35,783 bases of DNA from a virus. Position 1 is the first letter of the stretch. Every line of letters starts with the position of its first letter. A model generated the notes under the pieces. The model worked only from the letters and a program-made list of their open reading frames with translations. It was not told the origin of the DNA and made no database searches. Position numbers and translations under genes: made by a program. Positions 3,167-13,380 of the stretch are shown piece by piece. The stretch is from UHGV virus genome UHGV-0117379, one strand, 5' to 3'.

Positions 3167-3676
3167 ATGTTTGATTACCAAGTTTCCAAACATCCACATT
3201 TTGATGAAGCCTGTCGTGCATTCGCACTGCGCCACAATCTGGTGCAACTGGCAGAACGTGCGGGCATGAATGTGCAGATTCTGCGGAACAAGCTGAACCC
3301 AGCTCAACCTCATTTATTAACCGCACCAGAAATCTGGCTGCTTACCGATCTGACTGAAGATTCAACGTTGGTAGATGGTTTTCTGGCACAGATTCATTGT
3401 CTGCCATGTGTACCGATTAATGAGGTAGCAAAAGAGAAACTGCCACATTACGTCATGAGTGCAACCGCAGAGATCGGGCGTGTTGCTGCAGGTGCGGTAT
3501 CTGGCGATGTAAAAACCAGTGCAGGTCGTCGTGATGCTATCAGCAGCATTAACTCTGTAACACGACTGATGGCGCTGGCGGCTGTTTCATTGCAGGCCCG
3601 TTTACAGGCTAATCCTGCGATGGCGAGTGCAGTTGATACCGTGACTGGCCTCGGTGCTTCATTCGGTTTGCTGTGA
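3167..3676 (+). CDS. cII: 186-type CII lysogeny-establishment activator
   Basis: Near-colinear with remembered 186 CII ([21 protein letters not shown]...[20 protein letters not shown]...[28 protein letters not shown]...GASFGL). ATG at 3167, 9 nt after GGAG. Confidence 0.85.
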
Positions 3677-5266: not shown

Positions 5267-6120
5267 GCACCATCCTGAAATGGGCGGGTAATAAAACCAC
5301 CATTATGTCCGAACTGAAAAAATACCTTCCTGCTGGCACGCGACTGGTTGAACCTTTCGCGGGTTCTTGTGCTGTGATGATGGAGACGGATTACCCCAGC
5401 TATCTGGTTGCGGATATTAATCCTGATTTAATCAACCTCTATAAAAAGGTTGCTGCTGATTGTGAGGCGTTTATATCTCGTGCCAGAGCTTTATTTGAGG
5501 AAGCAAACAGAGAGGTGGCTTATTACAACATAAGGCAGGAGTTTAATTACTCCACTGAAATTACTGATTTCATGAAAGCGGTATATTTTCTGTATCTCAA
5601 TCGTCATGGTTACCGTGGGCTATGTCGCTATAACAAGAGCGGGTATTTCAACATTCCCTACGGTAATTATAAAAATCCGTATTTCCCTGAAAAAGAAATT
5701 CGCGCATTTGCAGAGAAAGCCCAGCGGGCAACGTTTATCTGCGCCAGCTTTGATGAAACGCTGGCGATGTTGAAGGCGGGGGATGTGGTGTATTGCGATC
5801 CGCCTTATGACGGTACGTTTTCCGGCTATCACACTGATGGCTTCACTGAAGATGACCAGTATCACCTGGCATCCGTTCTTGAACATCGATCATCTGAAGG
5901 TCATCCGGTCATTGTTTCTAACAGTGACACATCCCTGATCCGTTCGCTGTATCGCAATTTTACTCACCACTACATCAAGGCAAAACGCAGCATCGGCGTG
6001 GCAGCTGGTGAGAGTAAATCTGCAACAGAAATCATCGCTGTTTCCGGGCCGCGCTGCTGGGTAGGATTTGATCCTTCGCGTGGCGTGGATTGTTCCGTCG
6101 TGTACGGAGTGCGTGCATGA
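5263..6120 (+). CDS. dam: Dam-type N6-adenine DNA methyltransferase (D12 class)
   Basis: N-terminal LKWAGNK...EPFAGS (SAdoMet binding) and the catalytic DPPY motif ([10 protein letters not shown]). ATGA overlap with the upstream gene. Confidence 0.9.
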
Positions 6121-8531
6121 GCCATGCTGATATGAACAACTGCAGCGGCTTTAACGAGGTCGCCGCAGCATTCTCATGGAACAGCCCGAAAAAGGCCATT
6201 AACCCTTATCTGGACCCGGCGGAAGTTGCGCCGGTTTCTGCGCTTTCAAACCTGATCACTCTGTACGCTGCCGATAACGAGCAGGAACAACTGCGCCGCG
6301 AGGCACTGAGTGATCAGGTCTGGGAGCGTTATTTCTTTAATGAATCCCGTGATCCTGTCCAACGCGAAATGGAGCAGGATAAGCTAATTAGCCGGGCAAA
6401 GCTGGCGCATGAGCAGCAGCGTTTTAATCCAGACATGGCCATTCTGGCGGACGTCAACGCCCAGCCTTCCCATATCAGCAAGCCGCTGATGCAACGTATT
6501 AAATACTTCAGCAGCCTGGGCAGGCCAAAGGCTTATTCCCGCTATTTGCGTGAGACGATTAAGCCATGCCTGGAACGACTGGAGCATGTACGCGACAGTC
6601 AGCTATCCACTTCTTTTCGCTTTATGGCAAGCCATGAAGGGCTGGACGGCCTGCTGATCCTGCCTGAAATGAGTCAGGATCAGGTGAAACGCCTGTCCAC
6701 CTTGGTAGCTGCGCATATGAGCATGTGCCTTGATACAGCTTGTGGCGATTTGTATGCCACCGATGATGTTACGCCAGAAGAAATCCGCAAGACATGGGAA
6801 AAGGTGGCAGCGGAAACCCTGCGTCTGGATGTTATCCCGCCTGCGTTTGAGCAACTCCGTCGGAAAAGAAACCGCCGTAAACCCGTGCCTTATGAACTCA
6901 TTCCTGGTTCGCTGGCGCGTATGTTATGCGCCGACTGGTGGTATCGGAAATTATGGAAGATGCGTTGCGAATGGCGGGAAGAGCAGTTGCGTGCTGTTTG
7001 CCTGGTCAGCAAAAAAGCATCTCCCTATGTCAGCTATGAAGCCGTGATGCATAAACGTGAGCAGCGCCGTAAGTCGCTGGAGTTTTTCCGTTCTCATGAA
7101 CTGGTGAACGAAGACGGCGACACGCTGGATATGGAAGACGTGGTAAACGCCAGCAGCAGCAACCCTGCGCATCGCCGCAATGAGATGATGGCCTGTGTTA
7201 AAGGTCTGGAGCTTATCGCGGAAATGCGCGGTGACTGCGCCGTTTTCTACACCATCACCTGTCCGTCACGTTTCCATTCCACGCTAAATAACGGCAGGCC
7301 CAACCCGACCTGGACAAATGCGACGGTAAGACAAAGCAGTGATTATCTGGTCGGTATGTTTGCTGCATTTCGTAAGGCGATGCACAAAGCCGGATTACGC
7401 TGGTATGGCGTGCGGGTGGCTGAGCCGCATCATGACGGTACAGTTCACTGGCACCTGTTGTGTTTTATGCGCAAAAAAGATCGCCGCGCCATTACTGCTT
7501 TGTTGCGTAAGTTTGCCATTCGTGAAGACCGCGAGGAGCTGGGTAATAACACGGAACCACGCTTTAAGTCTGAGCTGATAAACCCGCGCAAAGGTACGCC
7601 AACAAGCTACATCGCGAAATACATCAGTAAGAACATTGACGGGCGTGGTCTGGCTGGCGAGATCAGCAAGGAAACGGGTAAATCCCTGCGTGATAACGCC
7701 GAATACGTTAATGCCTGGGCGTCTCTGCATCGTGTTCAGCAATTCCGCTTCTTTGGCATTCCGGGGCGTCAGGCTTACCGTGAACTGCGATTGCTGGCTG
7801 GTCAGGCGGCAAGGCAACAGGGGGACAAAAAAGCAGGTGCGCCGGTACTGGATAACCCGCGCCTTGATGCCATCCTGGCTGCCGCTGATGCTGGCTGTTT
7901 TGCCACCTACATCATGAAGCAGGGCGGCGTACTGGTTCCCCGCAAATATCACCTCATCAGAACCGCTTATGAAATCAACGAAGAGCCGACCGCCTATGGC
8001 GATCACGGTATTCGTATTTATGGCATCTGGTCACCCATTGCAGAGGGCAAGATCTGCACTCATGCGGTGAAGTGGAAAATGGTTCGTAAGGCCGTTGACA
8101 TTCAGGAGGCGGCAGCCGACCAGGGCGCTTGCGCCCCTTGGACTCGTGGCAATAACTGTCCCCTTGCTGAAAATTTGAACCAACAAGGGAAAGACAAATC
8201 AGCTGATGGGGATACCAGAACGGAGATCACCCGCATGGATGACAAGGAGTTGCACGATTACCTGCACAGTATGAGCAAAAAAGAGCGCCGGGAACTGGCA
8301 GCAAGGTTACGCCTGGTGAAACCGAAATGGCGTAAAGACTACAAACAGCGAATTACAGAGCATCAGCGTCAGCAGCTCGTCTATGAACTGAAGTCCAGAG
8401 GATTTGATGGCAGCGAGAAAGAGGTCGATCTGCTCCTTCGCGGTGGCAGTATTCCGTCAGGAGCAGGCCTGCGTATCTTCTATCGGAACCAGCGTTTGCA
8501 GGAAGATGATAAGTGGCGGAACCTGTATTAA
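6117..8531 (+). CDS. A: Replication initiation endonuclease gpA (rolling-circle HUH nickase)
   Basis: 804 aa. HUH-type motif [13 protein letters not shown] and tyrosine motif [10 protein letters not shown], as in P2/186 gpA. ATGA overlap with dam. Confidence 0.9.
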
Positions 8532-8883: not shown

Positions 8884-9117
8884 ATGCGCATTGAAATAAT
8901 GATCGATAAAGAGCAGAAGATTAGCCAGTCTACCCTGGACGCCCTTGAATCCGAGCTTTACCGCAATCTGCGCCCCCTGTATCCCAAGACGGCGATCCGC
9001 ATTCGCAAAGGCAGTGCCAACGGTATCGAGTTGACCGGCTTAAAACTTGATGAGGATAAGCAGCGGGTAATGGAAATTATGCAGCAGGTCTGGGAAGACG
9101 ACAGCTGGCTGCATTAG
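8884..9117 (+). CDS. DinI-family protein (77 aa)
   Basis: MRIEI.I.K...........L..EL.......P......IR.......L.........DKQRV.EI.Q.VWEDD.W matches the remembered DinI/MsgA pattern (MRIEVTIAK...EDKQRISEILQETWESADDWF). Confidence 0.8.
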   Translation: MRIEIMIDKEQKISQSTLDALESELYRNLRPLYPKTAIRIRKGSANGIELTGLKLDEDKQRVMEIMQQVWEDDSWLH

Positions 9118-9403
9118 CGAACGTTGCGGACGATAAAACTGGCTTTTACCGTCCGCAAGGTTGAACAACGAGCCGTGCGAGGCGTTAGAAATTGCCTTTG
9201 TTAGTGCCTGCTTCTCATAAGAGGCACTATATATGCTAAATGCAGTGGTTTAAGGCAGAAACATCTTGCGCGATTAGGGGCAATGAACTTAAGTTAAGTA
9301 ACGCAACCAACAGTTAAAACGGTTGTCTTAGTTATAAGGAACTTGCTGTTGTGGTTGCTGGTGACGAAGTGTACACTTCCGCGCCGTATAAGAAGGAGGG
9401 GTT

Positions 9404-9622
9404 ATGTCAAGTATCGCCGCATTGAAGCTGGGTAATCCAGTTGAACGTTTGGCACGGGTTCTGAAAGAGAACCAGGACAAGCTCAATCTGAGTAAAGATG
9501 GTTTTGTGTCCGTAGATTTGTCCAACGAAGAAGCTATGAAAGCCATCCGAGATCAGATGGATAAGCTTGAAGGCATCAAAACGAGCACTGTTAAAGCAAA
9601 ATATTATTACAGAACCCGATAA
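9404..9622 (+). CDS. Hypothetical soluble 72-aa protein; first gene of a coupled two-gene cargo operon
   Basis: ATG at 9404 follows AAGGAGGGG. Its stop TAA (9620..9622) overlaps the ATG of the next gene (ATAATGG). Confidence 0.65.
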   Translation: MSSIAALKLGNPVERLARVLKENQDKLNLSKDGFVSVDLSNEEAMKAIRDQMDKLEGIKTSTVKAKYYYRTR

Positions 9623-10464
9623 TGGCAACATTACTTTTAGCAGTGATTTTGGTTAGTGGTTTTATATATGTAAACCTATCACTTTCAACACGTTATAGAT
9701 ATAAGCGTTCCAATGGCTGGGACGCTTATTTTTTTGTGGCTGCATGGGGAATTGTCTTTTTCCTCGCTGGCGGCTTCCTTACCTTCGCTCTTAACATCAG
9801 CGGTGGGTTTCGCTGGTTTTCTAATGCGCTGAATCTGACTCCAGACAGCTTTAACGGGATGTTATCCACCACAACCGATAAACCGCAGCGCATCAATGAA
9901 ATTAAGCAAATCGCGTGGGTTGTGATTTCAATAGTTCTCGCGGCGCTGTTCGGTTGGCTAAACAAACGCCGTACTTCAAAAGGGGATCGCCGTTGGGATG
10001 CACTGGCAAAGGCAGTGGGAAACAATGCTTTTGAATCGCTGCTCATGGAAGCATCAGCTCGCCAGTTTCCTATCATTGCTACACTTTCATCACGCAAAAT
10101 CTATGTAGGGCTGGTGACTTGCCCTGCGTTGGAAAATGGATTGTCGGAACACCTTGAAATTCTCCCCTTGCTGAGCGGATATCGTGATAAAGACGACCTA
10201 ACGATAAATATCACGACAAACTATCATCAGCACTATCTTGATAGCGGTGTTATCAATGGGATGTCGCGCCTGAATATCCAGGATTTCCGTGTGCTTCTCC
10301 CTAAAGATGAAGTTGAAACCATCTCGTTTTTTGATACTGAAACGTATAACAAATTTAAAGAAAACGAAGCGCGTGACCGGAAAGACTGCCGCAAGTTGGG
10401 TGGTAAAAAGCCATCCGCACGCAGGAGAAAGACTGCTGGCGACGCAGAGCAGGGTAGTGCATGA
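9622..10464 (+). CDS. Hypothetical inner-membrane protein (280 aa; 3 N-terminal TM helices, cytoplasmic C-terminal domain and basic tail)
   Basis: Hydrophobic segments at about aa 2-21, 35-57 and 97-113. The C-terminal part of about 160 aa has no recognised motif. Followed by an intrinsic terminator. Occupies the tin/old cargo position. Confidence 0.7.
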   Translation: MATLLLAVILVSGFIYVNLSLSTRYRYKRSNGWDAYFFVAAWGIVFFLAGGFLTFALNISGGFRWFSNALNLTPDSFNGMLSTTTDKPQRINEIKQIAWVVISIVLAALFGWLNKRRTSKGDRRWDALAKAVGNNAFESLLMEASARQFPIIATLSSRKIYVGLVTCPALENGLSEHLEILPLLSGYRDKDDLTINITTNYHQHYLDSGVINGMSRLNIQDFRVLLPKDEVETISFFDTETYNKFKENEARDRKDCRKLGGKKPSARRRKTAGDAEQGSA

Positions 10465-10512
10465 CTATGCTGCATGAATTTGCATGATCGTTTGAGGATC
10501 GTTTTAGCTCCG

Positions 10513-10537
10513 GCCCGCCAGTTCAGGCGGGCTTTTT
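10513..10537 (+). terminator. Rho-independent terminator (GCCCGCC-AGTTCA-GGCGGGC-TTTTT)
   Basis: Perfect 7-bp GC stem, 6-nt loop and T5 run, 49 nt after the stop at 10464. Confidence 0.8.
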
Positions 10538-10581
10538 CATATCTCATGCAGGTGCATGAAAACCACTACACAAAGCGGGCA

Positions 10582-10600
10582 GGCGTGGCGGGGATACGAG
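10582..10600. other. cos cohesive-end site (GGCGTGGCGGGGATACGAG)
   Basis: The first 13 nt are identical to the remembered 186 cohesive end (GGCGTGGCGGGGAAAGCAT) and near-identical to P2 (GGCGAGGCGGGGAAAGCAC). The following CGCGCGCT also resembles the P2 left end (..TGCGCGCTGA). Confidence 0.6.
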
Positions 10601-10608
10601 CGCGCGCT

Positions 10609-10637
10609 CATTACTTTTATAATTCTAGGGTTATAAT
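10609..10637 (+). promoter_or_regulatory. Candidate promoter of the KAP NTPase gene (two TATAAT hexamers at 10618..10623 and 10632..10637)
   Basis: Two consensus -10 hexamers lie 29-48 nt upstream of the ATG at 10666. AGGAG SD at 10654..10658. The -35 elements are weak. Confidence 0.4.
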
Positions 10638-10665
10638 ACAGGGCTATCTTTCTAGGAGAAAACAC

Positions 10666-12318
10666 ATGTCCTTAGAGTTTATCAAAGAACAGTTGTCAGA
10701 TTTTATCTCATCTACAGAACCAGAAGTAATGGCTATACAGGGTGAATGGGGAATTGGTAAAACCTATACTTGGAATACGTTCCTAAAAGATAATAAAGAT
10801 AAGGTTGCATTTAATAGATATAGTTATGTCTCTCTTTTTGGTATAAATTCACTAGATTCTTTAAAGTATTCTATTTTTGAGAATGCAATTACAAAGGAAT
10901 ATATTGGAAATAAACCTGATTTGGAGACAGCAACAACAAACGCAAGTGGACTTTTTGAATCGTTTTCTCGAAAAGCCGCAGGTTTGTTAAAAGAAGCTCC
11001 TGTTGTAAAAAACTTCTCTACGACACTTGAAGCAATGTCATTTCTGACCGTTTCTAAAATGATTGTAGTAATAGATGACTTAGAAAGGCGTGGCAAAAAC
11101 TTAGATGTTAAAGATGTTTTAGGGCTAGTATCTCTATTAAAGGAGCAGAAGGATTGTAAGGTGGTTCTATTGCTTAACAATGGCACAGCTAGTATGGAGG
11201 ATTATTCTACTTATAAAGAAAAGGTCATTGATAGAGATATCACTTACAATCCAACACCAGAAGAATGCGCAGATATAGCCTATAAAGGTGATTTTCATGT
11301 TTATAACTTGTTAAGTAAATATTCCATTTCTTTAGGTATCAAGAATATTCGAATCTTAAAAAAGATAGAACGTTTTTTCGTGTCCTTAACACCAAATATT
11401 ATAGGTGATGTTGAGACAATTTCAAATGAAGTTGCGCATTCATTAACTCTGTATTGTTGGAGCCATTACGGATTTTCTCCAGAGGGAGATGTGCCATCAC
11501 TAGAATATATTAGGGGAGTGAGGAATATATATACTTATAATGACAAGGAAGAAGGCCATGAGAAAGTCTGGCTTAATACCTTGCTTAAATATGGATATAG
11601 AAAAACGAATGATCTTGATGAGGTTCTTATTGATATGGTTAGATATGGCTATCTTGATAAGAGCAGTTTCCAAAGACAAATAAGCCTAAGGAATGAGGAG
11701 ATTACGCGTGATAATAAACGAGGTTCCTTATCTGAGGCATGGCAGTTCTTTCATAATTCATTTGATGACAATCAAAATCAGGTTGTTGACAAGCTATATC
11801 AAGCGGTGGTTGATGGGATGAAGTATGTGACTCCAAGTGATTTAGATAATGTTGTCGGACTATATAGGGATTTCGGAGAGAATGCTAAGGCGAGTGAATT
11901 GATTGAACAGTTTATTAATTATGGTAACGATGCTCTAAAGGAATATGTTCAATCTATTTATGTGAATGTTCATCCCGTAAGAGATGCTGAGTTGTTGTCA
12001 AAAATTCAAGCCTATTCTAATATTATAAATATTGATGGTTCAATATATGATGTTCTTAAGAAATTATCAGGTCAGAATGGTTGGTCTGATAGACATGAGG
12101 AAATATTGGATGCTGCTTCAGTAGATGACTACTATCAATTATTTAAAAATGTCATTCTTGATGGTGGTGATTCAATAATAGCTACGGCGCTTAAATTCGG
12201 AAATTATAGTAATGGTTCTGATAGAATGAATCGTATAGGGAAAAAGGCAAGGGATGCCTTGATAAGAATTGGAGATGAATCGGCGATTAATAAAATACGT
12301 GTAAGGCGATTTTTGTGA
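10666..12318 (+). CDS. KAP-family P-loop NTPase (550 aa, no inserted TM helices)
   Basis: Walker A GEWGIGKT (10741..10764), Walker B IVVIDDLER (11062..11088) and a downstream NIRILKKIERFF motif fit KAP NTPase signatures (GxWGxGKS/T; hhhhDDLDR; PRxIKRFxN). Strongly AT-rich (20/60 GC in 11101..11160). The start is taken downstream of the terminator and cos, which lie inside the longer ORF 10474..12318. Confidence 0.8.
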   Translation: MSLEFIKEQLSDFISSTEPEVMAIQGEWGIGKTYTWNTFLKDNKDKVAFNRYSYVSLFGINSLDSLKYSIFENAITKEYIGNKPDLETATTNASGLFESFSRKAAGLLKEAPVVKNFSTTLEAMSFLTVSKMIVVIDDLERRGKNLDVKDVLGLVSLLKEQKDCKVVLLLNNGTASMEDYSTYKEKVIDRDITYNPTPEECADIAYKGDFHVYNLLSKYSISLGIKNIRILKKIERFFVSLTPNIIGDVETISNEVAHSLTLYCWSHYGFSPEGDVPSLEYIRGVRNIYTYNDKEEGHEKVWLNTLLKYGYRKTNDLDEVLIDMVRYGYLDKSSFQRQISLRNEEITRDNKRGSLSEAWQFFHNSFDDNQNQVVDKLYQAVVDGMKYVTPSDLDNVVGLYRDFGENAKASELIEQFINYGNDALKEYVQSIYVNVHPVRDAELLSKIQAYSNIINIDGSIYDVLKKLSGQNGWSDRHEEILDAASVDDYYQLFKNVILDGGDSIIATALKFGNYSNGSDRMNRIGKKARDALIRIGDESAINKIRVRRFL

Positions 12319-12325
12319 TTTTTAT

Positions 12326-12347
12326 AGGGGTGATTAACCCCTTTTTA
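12326..12347 (+). terminator. Short hairpin plus T-run (AGGGG-TGATTAA-CCCCT-TTTTA) after the KAP gene, abutting the convergent Q stop codon
   Basis: 5-bp GC stem at 12326..12330 / 12338..12342 followed by a T-rich run. Confidence 0.5.
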
Positions 12348-12348
12348 T

Positions 12349-13380
12349 CTAATTTAATGAGTAATCATTAAATGCTATGATTTTTTCATTTAGCCAAGTA
12401 TTAATTTCTATAAGCCTTTTTTGTAACGGAATTAATTCATTTCGGACAAAGACTTTACTAGCCTTTTCCACATCCCCAAACCCCCCAACATTATTCGGCA
12501 TTATCCCCATCATTTGCGGCGGCACGCGGTGTGCCGCCATCATGTCGTCCCGGCTCACGTTCTTAATATTCAAAAACTCATCCTTCGCTGCGACCTCTGA
12601 CAACGGGATAATCTGAAGCCCGTCCTTTTTGCCGTTAGGCGAGTACATAAACAGGTTGCGGAAGTTGCCCGGACCTTTGGCGCTTTTCATCGCATTGCGG
12701 AGGTTGTTCACATCTTCCTGGTTCTGCGCGGCATCGGTCATGTACATGATGAAGCCTGCATGACTGCCGTTAATGTAATACTTCCGGCGGAACAGCGTGG
12801 CGGACTCGTTGAGCAGGGCTGACGGAATGGCAGAAAGATAACCTGGCAGGCCGTAGATCTCCTGGTTGATGTCCGGTTCCATCAGATGAAAAATGCTGCC
12901 TTTCGTGAACTGATACTGCTGGGTTGTAATACCATATTGCACAAACCAGTAGGTATCCAGGTCTAATCCGCGTCGGGTGTATTTTGCCAGCGCAGGTTCA
13001 AGGGCGATAACTTCACCGAAGCGGTTCGTGCGTTTCTCCAGGTAGGCGTTACCAAATACCAGATAGTCCTGCACAAAACGTGAAAAAGCCTGCTGGCTGA
13101 GCAGCGGGTGAGGGATATAGGTGCTGGTCAGAATATTGCACTTTACTGCAATCGGTGAGCTGTGATGCACGGCGGCGCGGAAGGCTCGCGCCAGTCCGTC
13201 AAAACTCACTGGCGGCTCATACCAGCGATCTGTCTGTACGCATTCCACATAGTCCAGTCGTTCGCGGCGATCCAGTACTGGAATGGGATCGCCGAAGCTG
13301 AATGCTTCGGCTGAAGTCTGGCTTTTATGCTGGGTCTGGTTCTGCGACGCAGCGCGGTTCTTCTTACTCTTTCCCATCAA
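12349..13380 (-). CDS. Q: Portal (capsid packaging) protein gpQ
   Basis: 343 aa. Position and orientation match P2 Q, upstream of cos and co-transcribed with P. The last ~40 codons are AT-rich, unlike the rest of the gene. Confidence 0.9.
   Translation of the reverse strand: MMGKSKKNRAASQNQTQHKSQTSAEAFSFGDPIPVLDRRERLDYVECVQTDRWYEPPVSFDGLARAFRAAVHHSSPIAVKCNILTSTYIPHPLLSQQAFSRFVQDYLVFGNAYLEKRTNRFGEVIALEPALAKYTRRGLDLDTYWFVQYGITTQQYQFTKGSIFHLMEPDINQEIYGLPGYLSAIPSALLNESATLFRRKYYINGSHAGFIMYMTDAAQNQEDVNNLRNAMKSAKGPGNFRNLFMYSPNGKKDGLQIIPLSEVAAKDEFLNIKNVSRDDMMAAHRVPPQMMGIMPNNVGGFGDVEKASKVFVRNELIPLQKRLIEINTWLNEKIIAFNDYSLN

Follow-up and report, generated by a model that had tools for sequence, protein, structure and literature searches.

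A P2-like prophage in which a membrane-protein cassette and a KAP NTPase on either side of cos are probably independently exchanged cargo modules

When two cargo units face each other across a phage cos site, do they form one system or two? The question is raised by the stretch of DNA analyzed here (virus genome UHGV-0117379, 35,783 nucleotides in full; hereafter "the window"), which is a P2-like (Peduoviridae) prophage. To the left of its cos site lie two genes, encoding a small soluble protein (p72) and a membrane protein (TM280), and to the right lies a gene encoding a soluble KAP-family P-loop NTPase (KAP). The first-pass annotation of this DNA suggested that the membrane protein and the soluble NTPase could be the two halves of a split, membrane-associated KAP system and offered, as a fallback, that each is a cargo of its own and that the two accumulated independently on opposite sides of cos. 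We found that the fallback matches the data and that the split system fails on several counts, set out below. We conclude with considerable confidence that the hotspot is bipartite and that the pair and KAP are unrelated, independently swapped cargo modules, each a candidate defense.

The predicted gene order was borne out, running from the 72-aa gene through the 280-aa TM gene, a terminator hairpin, cos and the KAP NTPase to Q. The pair and KAP had been placed about 200 bp apart in the prophage, and we measured 201 bp from the stop of the 280-aa gene to the KAP start. An Rfam scan of the whole window gave no RNA family matches. The features of the locus are as follows, with coordinates in the window.

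8884..9117, + strand: DinI-family gene, conserved, anchoring the hotspot on the left (Pfam DinI, 2.7e-24; RefSeq annotation in comparison locus L001)
9189..10453, no strand: left cargo bay insert of 1,265 bp, comprising the two-gene cassette preceded by 215 nt (defined by empty-left-bay loci)
9404..9622, + strand: p72, a 72-aa soluble protein (phrog_9843, 4.9e-36)
9622..10464, + strand: TM280, a 280-aa membrane protein with three N-terminal TM helices and a C-terminal Sm/Hfq-like domain
10454..10608, no strand: cos block of 155 bp, common to all related loci whatever their cargo and dividing the bays (anchored comparison, blastn break points)
10512..10533, + strand: intrinsic-terminator-like hairpin with a T-run, inside the cos block
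10582..10600, + strand: 19-nt cohesive-end sequence, cos (alignment to annotated cosR/cosL of P2, NC_001895)
10609..12360, no strand: right cargo bay, which extends into the last codons of Q and holds the KAP module together with the upstream region and terminator belonging to it (homology break points)
10618..10637, + strand: two TATAAT hexamers 5' of KAP, a possible promoter (sequence reading)
10666..12318, + strand: KAP-family P-loop NTPase, 550 aa, soluble, with a helical C-terminal half (Pfam PF07693)
12326..12342, + strand: terminator-like hairpin between the KAP and Q genes
12349..13380, - strand: portal gene Q, conserved, anchoring the hotspot on the right (Pfam Phage_portal; RefSeq annotation)

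The reading of positions 10582-10600, GGCGTGGCGGGGATACGAG, as a cos-like 19-mer is supported by homology to the annotated cos of P2. In the alignment to NC_001895 cosR/cosL, 14 of the 19 positions are identical, and the flanking stretches GGTGCAT.AAAACC, AAGCGGGC and GCGCGCT are kept. A 58-nt pattern common to the P2 cosR/cosL junction contains the 19-mer; this pattern is unique in the window, and 0 of 100 shuffles matched it. The record of Salmonella phage SEN5 begins at cos, and its first 19 bases agree with the 19-mer at 16/19 positions. The site lies between the gpA-side accessory region and the portal gene Q. It follows, from homology to the cos of the P2 record, that the pair and KAP would occupy opposite termini of the virion DNA.

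In over 130 related loci, two sharp-edged cargo bays are kept apart by the conserved cos block of 155 bp. Break points in blastn alignments place its left edge at 10454-10459 and its right edge at 10607-10608. Where the left bay is empty, as in loci L003 and L049, just 4 nt separate the counterparts of window positions 9188 and 10454. On the other side, homology to loci with other cargo ends at 10607/10608 and resumes at 12360-12419. These comparisons also bear on two regulatory elements proposed from the sequence. The hairpin read as a terminator behind the membrane pair is present, but it is part of the conserved cos block and not of the membrane-pair cassette; we assign it to the block because it is present whatever the left cargo, being kept also where the left cargo is different or missing (anchored comparison, 26 loci and P2). 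The promoter suggested upstream of KAP holds up only in its -10 elements: two perfect TATAAT hexamers (10618-10623 and 10632-10637) are found there, but a good -35 box is absent, and a scan for consensus promoters did not call the hexamers. In the anchored comparison, the hexamers are kept among KAP alleles only. KAP has its own -10-like boxes, along with its own ribosome-binding site, and is separated from the pair by a terminator-like hairpin and the cos block.

The KAP gene starts at the ATG at 10666, giving 550 aa as in RefSeq WP_038431152.1; a 614-aa ORF from 10474 reads through cos. The protein scores 29.6 bits against Pfam KAP_NTPase (PF07693; cut-off, 20) and contains a Walker A motif, GEWGIGKT (residues 26-33), and a Walker B motif, MIVVIDD (residues 132-138). 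Its AlphaFold2 model (pLDDT 83) matches Orc/Cdc6 and STAND NTPases. It also matches PADLOC PDC-S49 at 4.5e-28, with model positions 9-441 of 624 covered; PDC-S49 is a single-gene entry and has candidate status only. We detected no TM segment in KAP (maximum 19-residue hydropathy, 1.35), and an insert at residues 92-119 is modeled as low-confidence amphipathic helices. It falls into a subfamily of its own, tightly conserved and about 555 aa long. KAP homologues in Shewanella, Pseudomonas and Cronobacter occur without the pair.

The split-system proposal started from the premise that a KAP NTPase without TM helices is missing something. This premise appears weak, both because 117 of 120 KAP homologues are without any TM-like segment and because PifA, the classic defense KAP and the P-loop NTPase by which the F plasmid excludes T7, acts as a single-protein abortive-infection defense and is likewise described as having no TM helices (PMC13001434). 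The precedent of PifA means that a lack of TM helices does not exclude a protein from the KAP family. KAP is likened to PifA by description only, and it differs in belonging to its own subfamily of about 555 aa. KAP also resembles Reve, from the P4 hotspot, and EF_KAP in being a single-gene KAP; these reported single-protein defenses combine a KAP NTPase with a C-terminal region of unknown function and are antiphage by experiment (PMC13586616, PMC13552941). Here too, the likeness to Reve is by description only, and EF_KAP has two TM helices whereas the window KAP has none.

In the membrane pair, the p72 and TM280 ORFs overlap by 1 nt (TAATG). In TM280, three hydrophobic segments (residues 1-23, 34-63, and 93-115) precede a C-terminal domain, which consists of an N-terminal helix and a strongly bent five-stranded sheet and superposes on Sm/Hfq proteins. 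Compared with other small beta-barrels of the Sm/LSm/Hfq-like (and WYL-like) type, the TM280 version is fused to three TM helices and has no sequence similarity to them. MscS-like channels resemble TM280 in combining three TM helices with an Sm-like domain. MscS is absent among the top fold matches listed for TM280, and Pfam MS_channel gave no match; we regard an MscS-like channel only as a lead. Neither p72 nor TM280 has a match in PADLOC or Pfam, and the searches of Pfam, NCBIfam and PADLOC returned only sub-threshold noise (DUF2207_C, 0.0099; a pilin-like model, 0.008). A sequence search of solved structures yielded nothing significant for either protein. Some RefSeq homologues carry the names "DUF2207 domain-containing" and "multidrug ABC transporter ATPase," neither of which is supported.

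Adjacency of the two genes is kept in 39 of 41 IMG/VR loci (in one of the other two, the upstream sequence is absent), and in P2-like, Pectobacterium, Vibrio and Aeromonas settings alike, the ORF directly 5' of the TM280 homologue is a small p72-like one. Among GTDB species, p72 is beside the TM280 homologue in 17/36 loci, made up of 15 of the 16 loci in which TM280 identity is at least 38% and two others at 26-30%. KAP is absent in every case in which p72 accompanies a TM280 homologue in Pectobacterium, Vibrio, Aeromonas and SEN5. We conclude that p72 and TM280 are an autonomous, translationally coupled two-gene cassette that is mobile across four unrelated prophage contexts.

Whether this cassette is a defense is a separate matter. 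The pair might instead have another accessory or life-cycle role, for example in lysogenic conversion or in a membrane function during the phage's own infection or assembly. Such a role would be consistent with the lack of PADLOC and Pfam matches, with the location of the pair in Aeromonas prophages, where it lies inside the tail gene cluster between tail-tube-like and tape-measure genes, and with a Pectobacterium copy that is kept with DinI but without other phage genes. We nevertheless consider a non-defense role unlikely, if worth keeping in mind, as the bay that holds the pair otherwise contains known or candidate defense genes and the cassette moves between unrelated prophages. Moreover, the pair is dispensable, because many near-identical phages go without it.

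The contents of the two bays support two independent modules. The cargo between gpA and gpQ varies among otherwise near-identical phages. Our locus searches relied on short peptide patterns and are biased to close relatives; within this scope, 41 IMG/VR loci carry the pair, and KAP is present in 2 of the 39 that could be assessed, both of them identical to the window. The right bay is empty (157-189 nt) in at least 7 of the pair loci. In the remaining pair loci, it holds at least 20 mutually unrelated main proteins, including Septu PtuA, a PD-Lambda-3_B-like protein, PDC-S15, PDC-S33, PDC-S59, PDC-M55C/DUF262 and SEFIR/TIR proteins. The same pattern is seen from the side of KAP, which we found in 23 IMG/VR loci at identities of 99, 78, 40, and 35%. 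It lies to the right of cos beside Q in 22/22 loci where cos could be located, and the left bay of these loci is either empty (208 nt) or contains an insert of one of about 12 other sizes. Of 71 loci sampled by anchoring on Q, all 71 have a filled right bay, 21 have an empty left bay, and 50 have both bays filled. Each unit is also seen alone beside an empty opposite bay (L003, L009, and SEN5), and in SEN5 the pair homologue is 48.5% identical and accompanied by no right-bay cargo.

Consistent with this picture, homologues of the pair and of KAP occur together no more often than expected by chance. Among approximately 1,246 complete E. coli genomes with the locus, which are not phylogenetically independent, 52 have the pair, 128 have KAP, and 4 have both, compared with 5.3 expected (odds ratio, 0.72; p = 0.81). 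In IMG/VR, 2 joint occurrences were observed against at most 1.6 expected (2/39 pair loci, 2/22 KAP loci). In a set of phage GenBank records, the 12 with the pair and the 12 with KAP do not overlap. A KAP-family gene was found within 5 kb of the TM280 homologue in 0 of 36 GTDB species representatives; only one P-loop ORF is nearby in these neighborhoods, and it is ParA-like. Where the two units do co-occur, their divergence is not matched: the amino acid identities of pair and KAP are 100/100, 90/78, and 94/41%, the last of these at Salmonella locus L079. Their G+C contents also differ, at 34% for KAP and 42 to 46% for the pair, in a backbone of 50 to 56%. Taken together, the pair and KAP are probably separate transcription units, they differ in origin, and that they meet across cos in the window is one chance combination out of many.

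The pair is nonetheless found beside three KAP-family alleles, namely the window type, an E. coli type (78%) and a Salmonella type (41%), and this recurrence could hint at a beneficial combination. The modules might be independent and yet protect more broadly or strongly when present jointly, for instance if KAP signaled to the membrane effector, and selection might then keep the combination. A synergy of this kind has been reported for the membrane NTPase Tmn with other defenses (PMC13001434), and the combination arose or was kept with each of the three alleles, in lineages of Klebsiella/E. coli, E. coli and Salmonella. We judge it improbable, however, as there is no enrichment over chance and shared regulation is absent. 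Furthermore, the recurrence of any pairing is to be expected, because both bays are usually filled (50/71 loci). The split system itself, in which TM280 with p72 would give KAP a membrane anchor in trans and the three proteins would form an obligate system assembled once cos is ligated, can call on the proximity of the units in the prophage, the TM helices carried by many KAP-family proteins (PMC13001434, PMC13552941) and the three alleles, but it is largely refuted by co-occurrence at or below chance in four collections and is made barely tenable by the existence of either unit beside an empty bay, by the unmatched identities and unlike G+C, by the terminator and cos block between the units, by a KAP subfamily that is TM-less and mostly far from any TM280, and by the PADLOC listing of KAP relatives as a single-gene candidate.

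The two unrelated modules lie in a bipartite, cos-adjacent accessory-gene hotspot between replication gene A/DinI and Q, composed of a left bay (9189-10453), the cos block and a right bay (10609 to about 12360). Each bay is refilled independently, probably by recombination in which homology is supplied by the core genes on the outside and by the cos block. As for the cargo, we infer an antiviral function for both modules. TM280 might oligomerize via a ring of its cytoplasmic Sm-like domain and work from the inner membrane as an effector of exclusion or abortive infection; p72 would then be its regulator or its sensor. By analogy with PifA and other single-protein KAP or STAND-like defenses, the helical C-terminal half of KAP could sense a phage product, upon which the NTPase would switch KAP on.

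A bolder version of this proposal, which we offer only tentatively, is that the cos block serves as the engine of a two-sided cargo exchanger, in which recombination on both sides is stimulated by the double-strand ends that terminase makes at cos and by the short shared block, and that p72 and TM280 make up a novel membrane-anchored module of two genes, working by exclusion or abortive infection and hopping between unrelated prophage types. If true, the exchanger would explain why defense hotspots lie at cos in both P2-like phages and P4 satellites, as well as the independent reshuffling of the two bays.

The gpA-gpQ hotspot and the very arrangement seen in the window are already known, as they are tabulated by Rousset et al. 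in 2022 (PMC9122126). In an excerpt of Table S5A of that study, the window arrangement is listed, as are KAP by itself and the pair in combination with SieB, RVT_1 and PIN_12. KAP_NTPase proteins rank with the most frequent cargos of the hotspot, with 69 KAP mentions in this excerpt versus 495 mentions of DinI. We found no report of a published antiphage test of the pair or of this KAP. We asked whether AC1, a system with TIR and TM proteins tested by Rousset et al., is the same membrane pair acting across cos; it is not, being annotated as "2TM + 1TM + TIR" and consisting of different proteins. The published hotspot (PMC9122126; NAR 2026, PMC13586616) is the same locus, with the same gpA/DinI and gpQ anchors and the same adjacency to cos, but it was scored as one unit by gene arrangement, whereas we resolve two bays around cos that assort independently and have junctions sharp to the base pair. 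These edges help delimit candidate defense systems, giving a left module at 9189-10464 and a right module at 10609-12345. The analysis also flags two candidates: a widespread TM-less KAP subfamily and a small mobile cassette with an Sm-like-domain membrane protein. It further helps avoid a false lead: in P2-like prophages, facing positions across cos are no ground for presuming that genes form one system, even where a soluble NTPase and a membrane protein seem complementary.

Two further comparisons concern individual relatives of the window. At E. coli locus L002, the pair, cos and KAP are 80% identical and might suggest co-divergence; we rejected this, because in Salmonella a pair at 94% identity stands beside a KAP at 41% and because both E. 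coli "B" alleles are mostly found with other partners. In P2 itself, the lysogenic-conversion exclusion genes old and tin are also non-essential accessory genes in the left bay beside cos. Their proteins are unrelated to the pair, and the two genes are read from the opposite strand, in the direction leading away from cos. The right bay of P2 is empty, with 167 nt from cos to the Q stop codon.

The window is a P2-like prophage, in which the genes around cos are ordered as follows:

6090-8531, plus strand, replication gene A (Pfam Phage_GPA, 3e-128)
ending at 9117, plus strand, DinI-family gene
9404-9622, plus strand, 72-aa ORF (p72)
9622-10464, plus strand, 280-aa membrane-protein ORF (TM280), overlapping the 72-aa ORF by one base
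10512-10533, terminator-like hairpin inside the conserved cos block
10666-12318, plus strand, KAP-family NTPase gene (550 aa; real start, ATG 10666)
12349-13380, minus strand, portal gene Q
on the minus strand, as is Q, terminase gene

The RefSeq annotation of L001, an E. coli prophage 99.9% identical to the window, contains the same gene calls. The gene order and the cos-like 19-mer proposed in the first-pass annotation were confirmed, with the KAP start corrected. A mechanical 614-aa ORF (10474-10665 plus the KAP gene) runs through the cos block into KAP, and the length of some database entries (e.g., P0076, 615 aa) suggests this long start. Inside 3 kb (9404-12318), G+C content is 34% in KAP, 42-46% in the membrane pair (p72 and TM280), and 50-56% in the flanking phage backbone, a contrast that points to different sources.

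In phage P2, the point where the annotated cosR and cosL meet aligns with the 19-mer (10582-10600) together with its flanks (GGTGCATTAAAACC...AAGCGGGCGGGCGAGGCGGGGAAAGCACTGCGCGCT in P2; GGTGCATGAAAACC...AAGCGGGCAGGCGTGGCGGGGATACGAGCGCGCGCT in the window). The pattern common to both has a single match in the window and none in 100 shuffles, and the record of Salmonella phage SEN5 begins with GGCGAGGCGGGGGAACGAGCGCGCGCT, identical to the window 19-mer at 16/19 positions. A promoter had also been proposed before KAP. Two perfect TATAAT boxes are present there, as is an AGGAGA ribosome-binding site; a -35 box of the consensus type is missing, and a promoter scan made no call. In Klebsiella phage ST15-OXA48phi14.1 (L004, 3475-3684), an annotated 69-aa hypothetical protein, QBQ71992.1, spans cos (at 3583) and is probably not a real gene.

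The stretch between gpA and gpQ beside cos has been described as a P2 defence hotspot, for which 1,650 arrangements are recorded in E. coli (PMC9122126); PMC13586616 re-analysed it. Table S5A of PMC9122126 lists the arrangement found in the window, KAP by itself, and combinations of the pair and SieB, RVT_1 or PIN_12. Both the hotspot and the pair/KAP arrangement are already known. We lined up 26 related loci and P2 at cos, and located blastn break points, to compare the cargo inserts, or bays, on either side of it. A block at 10454-10608, reaching approximately 125 nt beyond the 19-mer on its left side and 8 nt on its right, is conserved regardless of the neighbouring genes. In two loci with an empty left bay (L003 and L049), window position 9188 meets 10454 with 4 nt between, which defines the left insert as 9189-10453. 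At the other side, loci with different cargo lose similarity to the window at 10607/10608 and regain it only at 12360-12419, within the last Q codons, which places the right-bay junction inside the Q coding sequence. The final 4 to 23 codons of Q (12349-12419) vary with right-bay cargo. In a Q-anchored sample, the right bay is filled in 71/71 assessable loci, with about 50 different sizes, and the left bay is empty in 21/71. The hotspot is made up of two bays that assort independently and have sharp junctions, with a 155-bp cos block between them. This structure, which the published accounts consulted do not spell out, is our only refinement of them.

The first-pass annotation had speculated that TM280 and the soluble KAP NTPase form one split, membrane-associated KAP system. 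Co-occurrence near chance does not support this reading, although the counts below are uncorrected for shared ancestry and pattern-based retrieval of loci favours close relatives. IMG/VR contains 41 loci encoding the membrane protein (at 78-100% identity); in 39, p72 is matched immediately upstream, and one of the remaining two lacks that upstream sequence. A KAP homologue is present in only 2/39 assessable pair loci, both identical to the window. Elsewhere the right bay is empty (157-189 nt, as in P2) in at least 7 pair loci or holds inserts of about 20 sizes, and the largest right-bay proteins of 20 pair loci fall into 20 unrelated clusters. Proteins opposite the pair include Septu PtuA, a PD-Lambda-3_B/HEPN-like protein, a SEFIR/TIR protein, the PADLOC candidates PDC-S15, PDC-S33 and PDC-S59, and a DUF262 protein (PDC-M55C/HEC-05). 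Conversely, 23 IMG/VR loci carry a KAP homologue (99, 78-80, 40 or 35% identity), which lies right of cos and adjoins Q in all 22 where cos was located; their left bays are empty (208 nt) or of about a dozen other insert sizes, and only the same two window-identical contigs carry the pair. Given a background of at least 600 Q-bearing loci, at most 1.6 double carriers are expected, against 2 observed.

Other collections gave similar results. In 5,426 complete E. coli genomes (approximately 1,246 with the locus), the pair occurs in 52, KAP in 128, and both in 4, against 5.3 expected (odds ratio 0.72; Fisher p 0.81). The Q-anchored sample contains four KAP-family genes, three pairs, and one locus with both, a twin of the window. 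In the GenBank phage set, pair and KAP each match 12 records, with no overlap. In the SEN5 phage genome, a homologue of the pair (48.5% identical) lies 170 nt short of the right end, and just 230 nt separate the left end from the portal gene. TM280 homologues (23-91% identity) occur in 36 GTDB representative species, and the p72 profile matches the ORF directly upstream in 17; the KAP-subfamily profile matched within 5 kb in 0/36, and the single P-loop ORF nearby is ParA-like. Independent bay filling instead supports the alternative also raised in that annotation, namely, two independent cargos beside cos.

We also considered a non-obligate synergy between pair and KAP, since the pair recurs beside three kinds of KAP-family genes: the window type (both 100% identical), an E. 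coli type (pair 85-90%, KAP 78%, with one blastn segment of 80% identity spanning pair, cos and KAP), and a Salmonella type (pair 94%, KAP 41%). However, KAP_NTPase proteins are very common in the hotspot, so chance combinations are expected: the available portion of Table S5A (PMC9122126) has at least 69 KAP mentions and at least 21 of the 72-aa protein versus at least 495 of DinI, from which about three are predicted. The unmatched divergences of pair and KAP also argue against joint inheritance. We consider such synergy improbable.

Walker A (GEWGIGKT) and Walker B (MIVVIDD) motifs lie at residues 26-33 and 132-138 of the KAP protein, which matches Pfam KAP_NTPase at 29.6 bits (cut-off, 20) and PADLOC single-gene candidate PDC-S49 at 4.5e-28, and contains no hydrophobic segment. 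More than 1,000 proteins of approximately 555 aa make up its tightly conserved subfamily (mean column identity 62%, invariant residues along the whole length); TM-like segments are absent from 117 of the 120 best homologues, and members unaccompanied by the pair are found in islands or prophages of Shewanella, Pseudomonas and Cronobacter. PifA, the classic defence protein of the KAP family, has no TM helices according to PMC13001434, and validated single-protein KAP defences include EF_KAP, three metagenomic proteins (PMC13552941) and Reve from P4 (PMC13586616). A structure model (pLDDT 83) predicts an AAA+/STAND-like NTPase core and a helical C-terminal half. Between the Walker motifs, residues 92-119 (10939-11022) form an amphipathic, low-confidence insert (pLDDT below 50). 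Other membrane P-loop NTPases carry TM helices inserted within the P-loop domain (YobI family, PMC13001434; EF_KAP, PMC13552941). One purely speculative possibility is that our insert binds membranes, as a vestigial or peripheral element.

The 72-aa and membrane genes constitute a mobile cassette, found in three settings outside the P2-like left bay. In Pectobacterium chromosomes, DinI and the pair occur with other phage genes absent; there (L071-L074, 5372-6819), DinI, a 65-aa ORF and a 272-aa membrane protein lie amid housekeeping genes, as either a P2-like hotspot remnant or a domesticated cassette. The pair is also inside a lambdoid-type Vibrio parahaemolyticus prophage. In Aeromonas prophages (L076-L078, 5785-6771), a 70-aa ORF and a 256-aa membrane protein (58% identical) lie between tail-tube-like and tape-measure genes, the usual place of tail assembly chaperone genes. 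TM280 has three hydrophobic helices (residues 1-23, 34-63 and 93-115) and could plausibly be anchored in the membrane as an oligomer, its Sm-like cytoplasmic domain forming a ring; it would act as an exclusion or abortive-infection effector with p72 as its putative regulator. It is conceivable, though we think it unlikely, that cos ends stimulate recombination and so power an exchange of cargo on both sides, and that the pair is a new Sm-like defence cassette with a membrane anchor. Lastly, the 1,327-nt left bay of three IMG/VR loci (L105, L106 and L157) gave no p72 match by tblastn and holds a distant TM280-like ORF (33% identical) that may be a diverged form of the cassette.
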